Positions 17,281-57,742 of a DNA stretch of 64,000 nt are shown here, in pieces. A program made the translations under genes and the position numbers. The stretch is from an uncultured delta proteobacterium (GTDB taxonomy: Bacteria > Desulfobacterota > Syntrophobacteria > BM002). Below the pieces are notes generated by a model, which saw nothing but the letters and a program-made list of their open reading frames with translations, was not told the origin of the DNA and did not search any database. The first letter of the stretch is position 1; every line of letters begins with the position of its first letter. The stretch is from the NCBI GenBank assembly GCA_963712115.1, contig CAVQGX010000019.1, positions 25,293-89,292 of the forward strand. Direction: 5' to 3'.

Positions 17281-17363
17281 AATTTTGTCCTAACGTACCA
17301 GTATTCTTCTGCGAAGTTCCTTTTATGGGTTGCCCAATGTTTTTTTAGCATCCCCTGGAGAAA

Positions 17364-18164
17364 ATGTTGTCAGTAGATCCGAGTAACCTCGCAAAAGACG
17401 TAGAGGTTTTGCGCATTACCAAGGACCGTTGCCGTCACACCCGGGTTTCTGTGGTGCGTGAAATCCCCCTTACCATATTTCTCAACGACCGGGAAATTAT
17501 CACCCTTCTTTGCACAGGATCTCATATTGAAAGCTTAGCTGTTGGCTTTCTCAAGTCAGAGGGTCTGTTGCAACATCGAAGCAATCTCCAAAACGTGGAG
17601 ACGGACCCGAATGGCCAAACAGTTCGAGTCTTCACAAAAGAGCCTACAGCAATGGCTGAGCAGCTTTTCGGCAAGCGAACTCTTACCTCTGGTTGCGGAA
17701 AAGGTACCATCTTTTACAACGTGCTAGACTCCTTGCAAAGCCAGCCACTTGAAAATCAGGTCACTATTAAGGTTGACCAGATCCGCAAACTCATGACTGA
17801 GCTCCACAAACGGTCAGAACTTTATCGCCTCTCTCGAGGAGTTCATAACTGCGGCCTTGCAACTACAAAAAAAATTGTGATCTTTCGCGCTGACATCGGT
17901 CGTCACAATGCCGTAGATATGATACTAGGAGAGTGTTTTCTTAAAGAAGTTGACACCAGTGATAAGATTCTCATAACCACGGGCCGTATTACCTCCGAAA
18001 TCCTAATAAAAGCTGCTAAGATGAAAATCCCCATGCTGATTTCCCGCTCGGCGGCCACTAGTCTGTCCCTTGACCTCGCTCATAACCTAAACATGACCGT
18101 CATCGGCTATGTGCGTGGGGGCAGCATTCTTGCCTATGCTGGAGGAGAAAACCTTATCTGCTGA
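17364..18164 (+). CDS. fdhD: Formate dehydrogenase accessory sulfurtransferase FdhD
   Basis: EIPLTIFLN, LAVGFLKSEG, TSGCG, DIGRHNAVD, TGRITSE. Confidence 0.93.
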   Translation: MLSVDPSNLAKDVEVLRITKDRCRHTRVSVVREIPLTIFLNDREIITLLCTGSHIESLAVGFLKSEGLLQHRSNLQNVETDPNGQTVRVFTKEPTAMAEQLFGKRTLTSGCGKGTIFYNVLDSLQSQPLENQVTIKVDQIRKLMTELHKRSELYRLSRGVHNCGLATTKKIVIFRADIGRHNAVDMILGECFLKEVDTSDKILITTGRITSEILIKAAKMKIPMLISRSAATSLSLDLAHNLNMTVIGYVRGGSILAYAGGENLIC

Positions 18165-18167
18165 CCT

Positions 18168-19316
18168 ATGATCTATCTGGACAACGCAGCCACATCCTTT
18201 CCCAAGCCAAAGCGTGTAATAGATGCAGTTACGCGGTATTTGAACGAAATCGGGGGTAACCCCGGACGGGCCGCCCACGCTCTAGCTCGAGAGGCCAGTG
18301 GTTTAATTGATCGCACTCGACGATTGCTCGCCAGTCTGCTTGGCAATGTGGACCCTAGCCGCATCATATTTACCCCAAGTACAACTGTCGCTCTGAACTT
18401 GGCTATCAAAGGGTTGCTCAAATCGGGTGATCACGTGCTTACCACCAGCATGGAGCACAACTCGGTATTGAGGCCTCTAAATGGATTGGCAAAGCTAGAT
18501 GTGACCCACAGCCTGATTCCCTGCAGCAACAGCGGGGAACTGGACCCGGCAGACATCCTACCTCTCATCCAACCCCATACTCGACTGATTGCCTTAGTTC
18601 ATGCCTCAAATGTTACCGGTAGTTTGATGCCTGTTGCCGAGGTAGGGAAAATAGCTCGAGAGCGAGGTATCATGCTGCTGGTTGATGCGGCTCAAACCAT
18701 GGGCAAGATAGCAATTGATCCGGAAAAACTACTTGTCGACTTGCTTGCTGGCCCCGGTCACAAGGGTTTGCTGGGGCCCATGGGTACGGGCTTCCTCTAC
18801 GTAAAACCAGGTCTTGAGTTGGAACCATTGTGGGAAGGCGGCACTGGCACTCACTCTGAATCACTCAAACAGCCGAAAACTTGGCCAGATCGGTTTGAGA
18901 GCGGCACCTGCAATGCACCTGGTCTCGCTGGTCTAGCCGAGGGCATAGCCGAGGTTCAACAGTTGGGTTTTGAAGCCATCGCTGCCCATGAGCGGCGGCT
19001 GGCTGAGATTCTTCTGGACGGCTTGAGTCAGTTTCCTGGGATAACCCTTTACGGACCCAAGGATCGGCGCTTTTGCACTGGCACCCTTGCCTTCAATGTC
19101 CAAGAATTGGATTGCGCAGAAGTTGCCCACATTTTGGACACAGCTTATTCAATTGCGGTACGTTCCGGACTCCACTGTGCTCCAGCGGCACATCGAACCA
19201 TAGGCACTTTCCCTCAGGGCGCCGTTCGCGTCAGTGTAAGCCCTTACAATAGGGAAGAGGAAATTCATACCTTTCTTGAGGCTGTCTCTGAAATAGTAGG
19301 TTTCCGCCGCAGATGA
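18168..19316 (+). CDS. Cysteine desulfurase family (class V aminotransferase, PLP)
   Basis: MIYLDNAATSFPKP, EHNSV, VDAAQ, GHKGLLGP, RSGLHCAP. Confidence 0.93.
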   Translation: MIYLDNAATSFPKPKRVIDAVTRYLNEIGGNPGRAAHALAREASGLIDRTRRLLASLLGNVDPSRIIFTPSTTVALNLAIKGLLKSGDHVLTTSMEHNSVLRPLNGLAKLDVTHSLIPCSNSGELDPADILPLIQPHTRLIALVHASNVTGSLMPVAEVGKIARERGIMLLVDAAQTMGKIAIDPEKLLVDLLAGPGHKGLLGPMGTGFLYVKPGLELEPLWEGGTGTHSESLKQPKTWPDRFESGTCNAPGLAGLAEGIAEVQQLGFEAIAAHERRLAEILLDGLSQFPGITLYGPKDRRFCTGTLAFNVQELDCAEVAHILDTAYSIAVRSGLHCAPAAHRTIGTFPQGAVRVSVSPYNREEEIHTFLEAVSEIVGFRRR

Positions 19317-39900: not shown

Positions 39901-40157
39901 GCCAGACCTCCTTGAATGTGAGTTTGACCATCATTTAATCATATTTAATCAAAAGGGTCATGCTTTGGAATGACTGCAAAAAGAGTTATTTCTGGGACTG
40001 TGCCATTAATCATCTACTATTTATCCATTGCGGAGGATGAAAAAAGATGAAAAAAACAGTAGAATGATTATCTTGGTTCAAATGACTTTCCCGTTATGAT
40101 GGCCAGCGGCCATGAAATTATACCACATAGGCAAGTGACGAGAGGTTAGCAATAATC

Positions 40158-40310
40158 ATGGACAACATTTGGATCTTACTGGCAATTCTAGCAGGATGGA
40201 TAGTATTAAATAAGTGGGTACTGCCCAAATTGGGCATTTCAACCTGAATGAGTGGAAGTTGTGAGATCGAGGATCGATCTCATGGTGAAAATCAGAAGAA
40301 TCCCGAGTAA
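40158..40310 (+). CDS. Candidate 50-aa membrane micro-selenoprotein (Sec30, U-x4-C), absent from the ORF track
   Basis: MDNIWILLAILAGWIVLNKWVLPKLGIST-U-MSGSCEIEDRSHGENQKNPE. TGA 40245-40247; perfect hairpin TGAGATCGA-GGA-TCGATCTCA begins at 40262. Confidence 0.68.
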
Positions 40311-40407
40311 CCTTGGTCGTGTTTGATCAGAGGATAGCCCTTTTGAAAACTCAGACTGATGAACACAAAGATGGCAAACTTCAGTGGGATTGAGAGGGGA
40401 GGAAATC

Positions 40408-40680
40408 ATGGCTGAGAAAGTTCACATGTGCGAGACTTGCGGCAAGACAACGGAAAAGTTTGGTCACCTGTGCAATCCAGTAGAGGTAGATGAAGCCTAC
40501 GTCTGCGATCATTGTGGCCAAGCATCCACCGACCCACGACATATATGCAAGCCCAAGCTACAGAACATAAATTTTGTTTGCATAGCCTGCGGTCGGGTGG
40601 CAGAACTCCCAAGTCAGCTCTGCAATCCGCGGGATATCGAGCTTATGAAAAGGCAAGATCCCCCAACCAGGATCACTTAG
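40408..40680 (+). CDS. Small protein with three CxxCG-x(8-9)-LC-x-P type cysteine repeats (putative metal-binding)
   Basis: CETCG..HLCNP, CDHCG..HICKP, CIACG..QLCNP; GGAGG RBS before ATG 40408. Confidence 0.8.
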   Translation: MAEKVHMCETCGKTTEKFGHLCNPVEVDEAYVCDHCGQASTDPRHICKPKLQNINFVCIACGRVAELPSQLCNPRDIELMKRQDPPTRIT

Positions 40681-40723
40681 GCCTTTTTCACCAACTTTAA
40701 TATCAAAAAAATTCACTGCTTTG

Positions 40724-40750
40724 ATGGCGCCCACGGCGCCATTTCTATTT
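40724..40750 (+). terminator. Putative intrinsic terminator
   Basis: ATGGCGCC-CAC-GGCGCCAT followed by TTCTATTT. Confidence 0.55.
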
Positions 40751-43865: not shown

Positions 43866-44717
43866 CTACCACAGTCCCCATCTTGTTTTGGACCTTTTCA
43901 CTATGTTCACAAGTTTGTTTGCACCTTCCGGGGACAATCCGAGATTGCCCACTTGTGCCTCAATTTCATCCAAATTCCCATAGCCGTCCAGGTAGCCGTT
44001 TACCCTTGCTGCTGCAGTGGAATTCACCAAATCCTCCATTTTCGGATAGATGGTTTTGAACTCTTGCAAAAGATCACGCTGCTGCTGCAAGCGATACTTC
44101 TGATGATAATCCTCGGCCAGGTAAAAGGCATTAAAAGGAATGACCTCAGTGTGGACTTTACCCTCTAGGATAACGGCAACCTGATCCTTGCTCTTCAAAG
44201 CCAGCCTTTTCTGTTCTTCATTGTGGTAAAAGACCGCCGCTTTGTATTGGTTCGACCAAGGACTTCTCCCCGGCTTGTGGCTCTGCCAGAAAATATCCAA
44301 AAGCAGCTCATATGAGATCTTCGCAGGGTTGTAGTCAATCTGGATCGTCTCGGTGTGGTCTGCCAGGTTGTAATAGGTGGGATCCTTTGTTGTTCCTCCT
44401 GAGTAGCCAACCCTGGTCCGAACAACGCCATCAATGCTCCCGAACTGAGCATCCGGACCCCAAAATCAGCCCAAGGCAAAAGTCGCTGTCTCGACTTTTG
44501 CCGGTAGATTAAGGTCCACTGGTGGTTGGCTAACATGGCTCACTGAACTTTGTTTTACTACTTCCATCTTATTCCCCTCATTTCCTTGGTAGTCCCCGTG
44601 AAAACTATCGCACGAAGTCAACAAGATGATGTTTGCCAGGAAAATCAGCCTGAAAATCAAACCGGTTTTCCACTGGGAACCCAAGCTGTGCCAATTTAGT
44701 AAAGAAAAATTATGCAT
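43866..44717 (-). CDS. msrA: Selenocysteine-containing peptide methionine sulfoxide reductase MsrA (start uncertain)
   Basis: ORFs 44466-44729 and 43866-44300 join in frame across TGA 44468-44466: ATFALG-U-FWGPDAQFG..RTRVGYSGG..PTY..DHTE..FYLAEDYHQKY. Hairpin GATGCTC-AGTTCGG-GAGCATT 12 nt after TGA. Confidence 0.92.
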
Positions 44718-44892
44718 AATTTTCAACAAAGTCTGCGGAATGCAGAACTGTTTAAATCACCTCGATCTGTGCTTGGATCAGTCTGTTGAGATTCTCGGCA
44801 CTGGTTGAGGTCGAGTGTTAGTCGGCGGAGCCAAAAAAGAATTACATTCCTGCAACCAATAATTTGTCCCAAAGATTCTATCCTTTTGTTTT

Positions 44893-56761: not shown

Positions 56762-57091
56762 GCCACTCCTTCCATTTCCTGAGACTTGTTTGCTATTTTC
56801 CAGGCGTTCATAAAAGATTGTCCACAGAGTTTATCACAGAGAAGATGAAAATGAATTCAAGCTCTTTAGGTCCACATTGAACTCGAAACTGTAATTCCAT
56901 GGCCTTGCACATCTCCTATCATAAAAAGTGAGCCAAATTAAATCCCCACTGTTGAATTAATCATTTTAGAGATTATCTTCTCTGCCATAGAGCTCTTGTG
57001 CAATAATTTCTCTTCATTTGCCGGGCAGAGCTTGTGATAAGCTTTCACCTGTCGATGTTACCTACAATAATTTGATCATAGGAGTTCAGTT

Positions 57092-57742
57092 ATGGGACTG
57101 CAAGAGAAATTGACTCGATTGAAAATGGGTTTTGAAGCCCAAGCACCGAAGGAAGTTGTTGAGATCATGCACCGGGCAACCGACGACCTTGAAAGATCGG
57201 GAATTCTTGATGGCACGGTGAAAGTGGGTGACCAAGCCCCGGATTTTTCCTTGAAAAACGCTGACGGCCAGGAATTTTCTCTGAAAGATTTACTTTCTCA
57301 TGGTCCAGTTGTTCTCAGTTTTTATCGGGGCAAATGGTGACCCTATTGCAACCTGGAGCTGGACGCTCTCAAGAAAGCAGCCGGGGAATTCGAAGCACTA
57401 GGGGCTACTTTTATCGCCATCTCGCCTCAACTGCAGACATACAATCGAGCACTCAGAGAGGAAAAGCAGTTGACCTTTGAAATACTGAGTGATCCCGGCA
57501 ACCGGGTGGCACAGCGCTATGGCCTCAAGTTTCAATTGCCTGAGGACCTAAGAGAAGTGTATTTGAAATTCGACATTGATCTTCCAAGATACAATGGAGA
57601 CGATTCCTGGACACTACCTTTGCCAACCACTCTGATTATCGATCAAAATGGCATTATTCGACACGGAGCAATCAACGCTGACTACACGGTTCGCCCGGAC
57701 CCGGAAGAGACCTTGGCTTCCCTGAAAAAAATCGTGGCATAG
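57092..57742 (+). CDS. AhpC/TSA peroxiredoxin-like selenoprotein (UxxC)
   Basis: ORFs 57092-57340 and 57470-57742 join in frame across TGA 57338-57340: FYRGKW-U-PYCNLEL..AISPQ..ILSDPGN..LPLP. Short hairpin GGAGC-TGGAC-GCTCT about 14 nt downstream. Confidence 0.9.

Follow-up and report, generated by a model that had tools for sequence, protein, structure and literature searches.

INTRODUCTION

The eukaryotic proteins SelK and SelS are single-pass membrane proteins of the endoplasmic reticulum that carry selenocysteine (Sec, U) in a disordered cytosolic tail, and in SelS the Sec residue is paired with a Cys. A membrane micro-selenoprotein had been proposed in an earlier note, made from the sequence alone, on a stretch of 64,000 nucleotides (nt) from an uncultured delta proteobacterium (GenBank assembly accession number GCA_963712115.1; contig CAVQGX010000019.1, coordinates 25,293 to 89,292 of the forward strand). 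This whole stretch is referred to here as the window, and the candidate gene, which has an in-frame TGA and a Cys codon five codons further on, is the subject of the present analysis.

Bacterial selenoproteins were grouped into 119 families and subfamilies in Table 1 of a 2026 review (PMC13188914), and the family to which the candidate appears to belong is absent from that table. Small bacterial selenoproteins for which no function is known are included in the same review (PMC13188914), namely the UGSC-containing protein NF041046, the dual-CXXC small protein NF041197 and TsoA, the 'LULAXC' protein NF045695. No description of the family was found in a full-text literature search, though supplementary tables, which lie outside such a search, could list one, and the available parts of the reports on BSepDB (PMC13326102) and deep-Sep (PMC12013277) make no mention of a membrane micro-protein.

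A predicted gene for a 50-residue selenoprotein

When the TGA is translated as U, the frame at positions 40158 to 40310 of the window (+ strand) reads MDNIWILLAILAGWIVLNKWVLPKLGIST-U-MSGSC-EIEDRSHGENQKNPE, giving a protein of 50 residues. The sequence bears out the coordinates in the earlier note, which placed an ATG at 40158 after GAGG, the TGA at 40245, a Cys five codons on and a TAA at 40308–40310. The features of the locus are as follows, where A1 is an alignment of 50 members of the family and A7 an alignment of 70 Cys-containing homologues.

40140–40145, + strand: Shine-Dalgarno-like GAGAGG, 12 nt upstream of the ATG, in a purine-rich block retained in close relatives
40158–40310, + strand: predicted selenoprotein coding sequence, 50 residues, from ATG 40158–40160 to TAA 40308–40310 with the stop codon counted in
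40161–40232, + strand: predicted single transmembrane helix, about residues 2–25, from an AlphaFold2 model of a Cys homologue; ends in the conserved W..LN[RK]W[VI]LP[KR]xG
40245–40247, + strand: UGA predicted to be decoded as Sec, residue 30; TGA in 119 and TGC in 1 of 120 distinct homologous segments of 66 nt, over all loci
40260–40262, + strand: codon for Cys35, the probable Sec partner (U-x4-C); Cys in at least 90% of A1 and invariant in A7
40259–40285, + strand: putative selenocysteine insertion sequence (SECIS) hairpin inside the coding sequence; 12 base pairs (bp) with G-U pairs included, 9 perfect; loop GGA at 40271–40273

The locus is best read as a genuine 50-residue selenoprotein gene belonging to a widespread, unnamed family of single-pass membrane micro-proteins, and on the comparative evidence set out below we put the probability of this reading at roughly 85%. 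Ribosomes would initiate at the ATG at 40158, the hairpin at 40259–40285 would recruit SelB carrying Sec-tRNA to the UGA at 40245, and after insertion of Sec translation would terminate at the TAA at 40308. Sec decoding of a small membrane protein by means of a SECIS in the coding region is supported by the sequence comparisons.

In the open reading frame (ORF) list made with genetic code table 11, the small frame appears only as an ORF of 29 residues. The earlier note could name no known family, and the Pfam-A and NCBIfam 20.0 models, including those that the 2026 review cites, likewise gave no match to the 50-residue reading at E ≤ 1. A word-index protein search with the window protein returned a single match, a 29-residue stump (P0002), and a full hidden Markov model search was needed to recover more. 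A scan of the window at Rfam gathering thresholds identified no family, and bacterial SECIS elements are not expected in such a scan.

Conservation of the TGA codon and distribution of the family

Sixty-one genomes of the same class were searched with stop codons read through (the window genome is denoted G000 and its contig C19). The matches spanned the TGA and contained exactly one TGA each, their E-values ranging between 9e-30 and about 1e-4. When the 54 fetched loci were scanned for the motif, 52 proved to hold the gene, corresponding to 51 of the 61 genomes; the two weakest matches (L053 and L054) are not family members. A single copy was found in G000. The start codon in members from the class is ATG, rarely GTG, and lies 28–32 codons upstream of the TGA. 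In A1, M1, P23, G26 and U30 are invariant, and W14, W20 and C35 are each present in at least 90% of the sequences.

When one genome from each of 185,579 species was searched, 373 stretches encoding a relative were found. The critical codon is TGA in 79 of the best 80 of these and a Cys codon in one (L115, a Planctomycetales metagenome-assembled genome). The genomes behind the best 80 belong to Syntrophobacterales/Syntrophobacteria (the window's own group), Desulfuromonadales, Desulfomonilaceae, Planctomycetota, Spirochaetota and Acidobacteriota, and include a cultured carrier, Desulfacinum hydrothermale DSM 13146 (locus L123). An even sample of 201 Planctomycetota genomes gave 22 matches, 19 of them with one TGA and three listed without a stop codon; one of the three (L152) was seen by eye to have a TGA at the column, just past the matched part, and another (L135), which coincides with L115, has Cys there. 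Thirteen Planctomycetota loci missed by the strict motif were read by eye.

The set of 120 segments was obtained by dropping duplicate genomes and keeping only sequences with a Cys at +5. The duplicates left out were 16–17 loci (L055–L065, L069, L070, L120, L123 and L135, with L039 as a further one in the hairpin and codon counts); loci without a member (L053, L054, L155 and L156), L148 and segments cut by contig ends were also left out, and the near-identical loci L002–L014 from the window's genus were omitted from part of the locus analyses. Homologues ending in TAA or TAG at this column had been named in the earlier note as evidence that would speak against Sec decoding, and none was present among the homologues examined.

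The 120 segments were also used to examine variation by codon position. The mean column entropy at the first, second and third positions is 0.86, 0.36 and 1.58 over the 16 codons before the TGA and 1.15, 0.87 and 1.46 over the five codons after it, the third position being the most variable on either side. As those five codons precede the hairpin stem, the coding signal after the TGA does not arise from RNA structure. Met is found at +1 in 94 of the segments, Ser at +2 is encoded by TCN in 66 and by AGY in 30, both codon families are also used for Ser at +4, and the Cys codon at +5 is TGC in 68 and TGT in 52. Protein-level selection is indicated by these codon patterns on both flanks of the TGA. 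Conservation on both sides, which the earlier note had looked to for support, is found in the genomes of the class, in A1 and in the codon-position analysis.

Variant active sites were also seen. Four loci from one genus in the class (L048, L050, L051 and L052) encode ...GLGC-U-Q..., with a CU dipeptide and no Cys at +5, and L049 encodes ...GVTG-U-IPYSR..., without a nearby Cys. Some members in Planctomycetota and Acidobacteriota have U-x5-C or U-x6-C spacing.

Cys-containing homologues and public annotation

A profile of A1 was searched against 1.84 billion representative proteins, and 1329 representatives were recovered at E ≤ 1e-3, 53 of them at E ≤ 1e-10. Among the best 150 of the 1329, 108 have Cys at the Sec column in a C-x4-C motif, 16 terminate exactly before the column, 14 have Trp and two have Gly there, and the remainder are odd cases. 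The Trp and Gly residues are read as the product of gene calls under other genetic codes. P0010, P0035 and 14 more of the best 150 are Sec forms that were deposited with W, G, L or S, or cut to 29–31 residues, and such substituted or shortened deposits represent a systematic mis-annotation of UGA.

In A7, P23, G26, C30 and C35 are invariant, and there is no conservation beyond C35. Comparison of the Sec profile A1 with the Cys profile A7 using hhalign gave 99.9% (E 3e-31), a match that is not independent because the A7 sequences were found with A1. Homologues with Cys aligned to the Sec, a further kind of support envisaged in the earlier note, are therefore represented by L115, by the 108 C-x4-C proteins and by the profile match. 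Ten Cys forms compared with Pfam and NCBIfam gave chance-level matches only, all under the cut-offs. A second search of public protein sets identified 647 clusters (90% identity) at E ≤ 1e-6, and of the 120 that were listed none has a precomputed Pfam domain, while those with a name are 'hypothetical protein' from Planctomycetota. The nearest cluster to a Cys-form query in the ESM Atlas was also an unnamed Planctomycetota 'hypothetical protein', at 0.88, which is under the level that counts and is taken as a lead only.

In the Cys form at L115/L135 the SECIS position is still occupied by a hairpin, of 7 bp and with the loop GTC, and this locus looks like a recent change from Sec to Cys.

The putative SECIS element

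The hairpin described in the earlier note, with nine perfect base pairs and a GGA loop, is present as claimed: positions 40262–40270 pair with 40274–40282, and the stem starts 14 nt past the TGA. The published model for bacterial SECIS elements has a loop of 3–9 nt, a stem of 4–16 bp, a G in loop position 1 or 2, a distance of 16–37 nt between UGA and loop, and a minimum free energy (MFE) of −7.5 kcal/mol or below (PMC13188914). With its GGA loop, stem of 9–13 bp, spacing of 23 nt and −11.2 kcal/mol, the window element lies within these published limits. When a 61-nt segment was folded, the MFE was −15.5 kcal/mol (z −2.24) and four of 200 shuffles were equally stable. The single-sequence fold is only mildly unusual, and the weight comes from comparison.

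A position-specific count of hairpins, set against codon-order shuffles, was used in place of a recoding control on whole-segment MFE. An ungapped hairpin of −5 kcal/mol or below, with a G in the loop and a loop start 20–30 nt from the U of the UGA, was present in 96 of 132 Sec forms, whereas the shuffles gave 7.4 ± 2.7 hairpins, with a maximum of 15 in 200 shuffles. There are 75 distinct hairpin sequences among the Sec forms. The distance of the hairpin is constant across the family, but the stem sequence is wholly different between clades, being GAGATCGA/TCGATCTC in the window, GCGCGGT/ACCGCGC in Isosphaeraceae, CTCCC/GGGAG in Desulfuromonadales and TCATCCGG/CCGGGTGG in Desulfomonilaceae-like genomes.

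Covariation, which the earlier note had suggested looking for, was found in two gapless register groups. In A5 (26 sequences) 90.9% of cells pair and compensatory changes occur in six of eight pairs, and in A6 (18 sequences) 96.8% of cells pair with compensatory changes in six of seven pairs. The observed covariation score was reached by none of 500 shuffles in either group, and when the partner was shifted by one to three columns pairing fell to 17–52%. The encoded amino acids covary in ways that keep the stem, as in E-I-G-D-L (GAG...CTC), G-I-G-D-P (GGG...CCC) and S-I-G-D-R (TCG...CGA), and a change from I to V is coupled with a change from GAT to GAC in the stem. On this evidence the residues past Cys35 are shaped mainly by the need for a SECIS stem and not by protein function.

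Predicted membrane topology

When P0012, a natural Cys form, was modelled in AlphaFold2 with A7, residues 2–25 formed a helix with a predicted local distance difference test (pLDDT) score of 90–95, the rest being unordered. The conserved segment past the helix, LN[RK]W[VI]LP[KR]xG[IV]xT-[U/C]-MSGx-C, is followed by a polar tail that is not conserved. Over 262 family sequences, the N-terminal flank of the helix has a mean of 0.40 Lys/Arg and 0.90 Asp/Glu, and the 12 residues from the hydrophobic core to the Sec have a mean of 1.65 Lys/Arg and 0.03 Asp/Glu. An excess of Lys/Arg on the C-terminal side is seen in 75% of the sequences and the reverse in 2%. From this charge bias and the established positive-inside rule, an N-terminus outside and a C-terminus inside are predicted, which would place the Sec/Cys pair at the cytoplasmic face of the membrane, about 5–6 residues past the helix. 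A homodimer prediction with the Cys-form alignment scored 0.03 against a mark of 0.42 and was used neither way.

Selenocysteine machinery and other TGA-containing frames

Genes for Sec synthesis and insertion were identified in G000, namely selB (395 bits, cut-off 242), selA (618 bits, cut-off 268) and selD (382 bits, above the cut-off, with one internal TGA). The earlier note had also cited three other genes in the window with TGA read-through as evidence for Sec decoding. Two such genes were found, and the claim is thereby confirmed in part.

43869–44756, − strand: MsrA with the Sec motif GUFWG, TGA at 44466–44468 (TIGR00401, 121 bits, cut-off 108)
57071–57739, + strand: peroxiredoxin/redoxin-like protein with W-U-P-Y-C (UxxC), TGA at 57338–57340 (NCBIfam matches below the cut-offs)

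Under genetic code table 11 MsrA is seen only past the TGA, as an ORF of 144 residues (43866–44300). The matches of the W-U-P-Y-C protein that fall below the cut-offs are to ResA, thiol peroxidase and a SelL-related redox protein.

Two other long open frames that cross a TGA are not read-through genes. In the frame that is open across the TGA at 2053, the TGA lies upstream of the match to RecG. The frame at 17349–19313 (+ strand), with a TGA at 18162–18164, consists of two genes: FdhD stops at the TGA, and directly after it starts a protein of the cysteine desulfurase family. FdhD is the formate dehydrogenase sulfurtransferase, and the adjoining desulfurase resembles the selenocysteine lyase SclA (346 bits, cut-off 525).

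Genetic context and transcription

Two further features lie downstream of the small gene in the window.

40408–40680, + strand: 90-residue Cys-rich protein with three C-x2-C-G-x(7-8)-H-x-C-[NK]-P repeats, 97 nt past the stop codon of the small gene
40723–40743, + strand: terminator-like hairpin and T-run after the Cys-rich gene, a consensus match only

The Cys-rich protein has only weak matches to zinc ribbons, none above threshold, and its gene is a conserved same-strand neighbour only in the 14 closest genomes. The two genes probably form one operon, in the window's genus only. Terminator-like sites in the region number three against 0.8 ± 0.8 expected, and a promoter scan of the region, with three sites against 1.8 ± 1.4 expected, was uninformative. 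A weak terminator-like stem of 5 bp (40303–40316, + strand) overlaps the stop codon of the small gene and could modulate read-on into the Cys-rich gene.

The genes on either side differ between clades. An O-methyltransferase gene is divergent and upstream of the small gene in the window's genus, whereas other Syntrophobacteria have a same-strand FmdB-type zinc ribbon gene ahead of it (12 of 117 upstream neighbours) and a convergent DD-carboxypeptidase gene downstream (30 of 113 downstream neighbours), which is the most frequent neighbour. A membrane-anchored TlpA-like CxxC redoxin is encoded upstream in 11 of 117 loci. The gene order in Desulfomonilaceae-like genomes is TlpA-like redoxin (C-Q-Y-C), small gene, a same-strand gene for an ArsR-family regulator 3–43 nt further on, and lastly NikR. 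Isosphaeraceae and further members of the Planctomycetota, the Cys form among them, have a divergent gene 102–103 nt upstream, whose product is a different ArsR-family protein bearing a C-x3-C at its C-terminus. This adjacency to ArsR-type genes, in two phyla and two arrangements, is the best hint of function. Cation-efflux (three) and MerR (two) genes among the neighbours hint in the same direction.

Of 8000 candidates scored in a search for fusions, only three were longer forms. Thioredoxin (P0092) and rhodanese (P0154) each occur once in a fused or run-on form, which also hints in that direction, but as each partner has a start or signal peptide of its own, the gene calls may simply have run on.

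Contigs from RNA libraries cover the ORF at 39960–40313 (X15), 40108–40305 (X17), 40224–40391 (X16) and 40215–40712 (X19), the last bridging the small gene and the Cys-rich gene. They represent four metatranscriptome runs from three studies and lend weak support to transcription of the small gene; translation is not addressed by them.

Possible function and alternative interpretations

Several observations weigh against the conclusions drawn here. As regards Sec decoding, no tRNA-Sec gene was found in G000 using Rfam or ARAGORN, the assembly being 94.4% complete and in 70 contigs. The best Rfam match to tRNA-Sec is a tRNA-Ser that falls short of the threshold (45.8 bits, threshold 47), and the 44 tRNAs identified by ARAGORN include none for Sec. 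A tRNA-Sec gene is present in all five of the relatives checked (73–75 bits), and as only 44 tRNAs were called in G000 the gene probably sits in the unassembled part of that genome. The A5 and A6 subgroups were picked for a hairpin in one register, which biases them towards pairing. The signal in a synonymous recoding control was only modest, with a mean z of −1.4 and p<0.05 in 16 of 52 cases, because the peptide past Cys35 and the stem encode each other, and this entanglement means that part of the downstream conservation is not countable as evidence for a protein. The RNA-library contigs may include DNA and come from relatives at 90–99% likeness. As regards function, no partner gene is universal, neighbourhoods vary by clade, and the commonest neighbour, the DD-carboxypeptidase gene, probably reflects synteny only. 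The membrane anchor of the TlpA-like redoxin is typical of outward-facing proteins, which is at odds with direct contact between this redoxin and a cytoplasmic Sec. To our knowledge, U-x4-C is not among the classical redox motifs.

A role in redox chemistry or metal binding, as proposed in the earlier note, finds some support in the neighbourhoods, through the ArsR-type regulators, the TlpA-like redoxin and the zinc-ribbon proteins. Our leading, though tentative, suggestion is that a thiophilic species, whether a soft metal(loid) or sulfane sulfur, is captured or passed on at the membrane by the selenol and thiol together, and in some lineages this would take place within a stress circuit under the adjacent ArsR-type repressor. 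A selenenylsulfide/dithiol redox couple recycled by thioredoxin-like proteins is the next most likely function, and is possible rather than probable. It is doubtful, though conceivable, that the protein works alone as a selenol/thiol 'hook' on the inner side of the membrane, sensing arsenite, mercury, cadmium, sulfane sulfur or selenium or passing these to ArsR-type regulators, zinc-ribbon partners or exporters; it would then be the first counterpart in bacteria of the eukaryotic membrane micro-selenoproteins. If so, the near-exclusive use of the Sec form in anaerobes would follow from the ability of a selenol to outcompete thiols for thiophilic ligands.

An alternative that retains the selenoprotein is that it serves a larger membrane complex, as an accessory subunit or in assembly, and that the Sec and Cys there ligate a metal centre or an Fe-S cluster. 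The size and architecture are typical of such subunits, small zinc-ribbon or Cys-rich proteins are encoded next to the gene in two clades, and a gene for an Mrp/NUBPL-type Fe-S carrier ATPase is found near it in many Syntrophobacteria loci, but the Mrp gene is on the opposite strand and confined to one clade, and no membrane complex is encoded among the conserved neighbours. This interpretation is unlikely.

Much less probable is that the small frame is a selenium-sensing leader, in which expression of the following gene depends on whether the ribosome passes the UGA, the peptide having no role of its own. The same-strand gene 97 nt past the stop codon in the window's genus, the weak stem over the stop codon and the RNA-library contig that covers both genes would fit a leader. 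However, 30 of 113 loci have a convergent gene next, so that there is nothing downstream for a leader to control, and the Cys forms keep the same peptide yet cannot sense selenium in this way. Strong amino-acid selection on the helix and on LP.xG..T[U/C] in at least four phyla also argues for a role of the peptide.

Least credible of these is that the UGA is an ordinary stop codon after a hydrophobic peptide of 29 residues, with the downstream conservation reflecting an RNA hairpin that stabilises or attenuates the transcript. Public gene calls do end at the UGA (P0002 and 16 of the best 150 database matches), and the residues past Cys35 follow the hairpin and not a protein motif. Natural homologues with TGC or TGT at this position nevertheless continue to the conserved Cys five codons on, M-S-G-x-C precedes the stem and shows both synonymous and Ser-family codon switching, no T-run follows the hairpin, and TAA and TAG do not occur at the column in any homologue examined. 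Even taken jointly, the interpretations that deny Sec decoding, a true stop and a pure leader, are very improbable. A chance ORF, a toxin-antitoxin peptide and a precursor of a ribosomally synthesised and post-translationally modified peptide were rejected on the grounds of the conservation across phyla, the single copy in G000, the pairing of Sec with Cys and the lack of modifying-enzyme genes among the neighbours.

Comparison with known systems

The transmembrane domain of YgaP (PF11127/DUF2892) resembles the present family in being a small membrane domain that ends in ...LGI.TC and in having an ArsR-type neighbour, YgaV in Escherichia coli, but YgaP has two helices where the window protein has one. 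A link between them was considered and rejected: PF11127 was found in none of 26 genomes at E ≤ 0.001 with stop codons read through, whereas 23 of the 26 carry the small gene, and the proteins themselves were unmatched.

The window protein resembles SelK and SelS in having one N-terminal membrane helix, a short and apparently unstructured tail that is predicted to be cytosolic, and a Sec outside a thioredoxin fold. It differs in being bacterial and at most half the size, with a fixed [U/C]-x4-C placed 5–6 residues past the helix and a SECIS in the coding sequence. The Pfam families of SelK and SelS were not among the matches at E ≤ 1 to the window protein and ten Cys forms, and the likeness is architectural only.

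The small families NF041046, NF041197 and NF045695 are, as far as the review table describes them, also short Sec/Cys families with a nearby Cys that were found by comparative genomics, mostly in Desulfobacterota. The U-x4-C spacing sets the present family apart, and none of the three is given as membrane-anchored in that table. None matched the window protein or ten Cys forms at E ≤ 1. The putative mercuric transport protein (MerT-like, PF02411) and the CU-motif, metal-handling selenoproteins SaoL and HgcA of Haft and Gwadz likewise combine a Sec beside or near a Cys with putative handling of soft metals in anaerobes. There is no homology with these, which are multi-pass transporters or enzymes, unlike the one helix and five-residue loop found here.

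Proteins of 50 residues fall under what the usual searches and gene callers retain, and the public records so far consist of a 'hypothetical protein', a 29-residue stump or a mistranslation to W or G at the Sec position. Naming the family would correct the annotation of many anaerobe genomes and add a membrane-anchored type to the bacterial list. The family also offers a very small model that can be synthesised for the comparison of selenol with thiol at a membrane surface, and it shows clearly how a SECIS stem can dictate the residues that follow an active site. Set beside the described selenoproteins, the family is new, though systems of this kind are well understood, and what distinguishes it is its size, its membrane anchor, its breadth and the near-exclusive use of Sec in the genomes examined.

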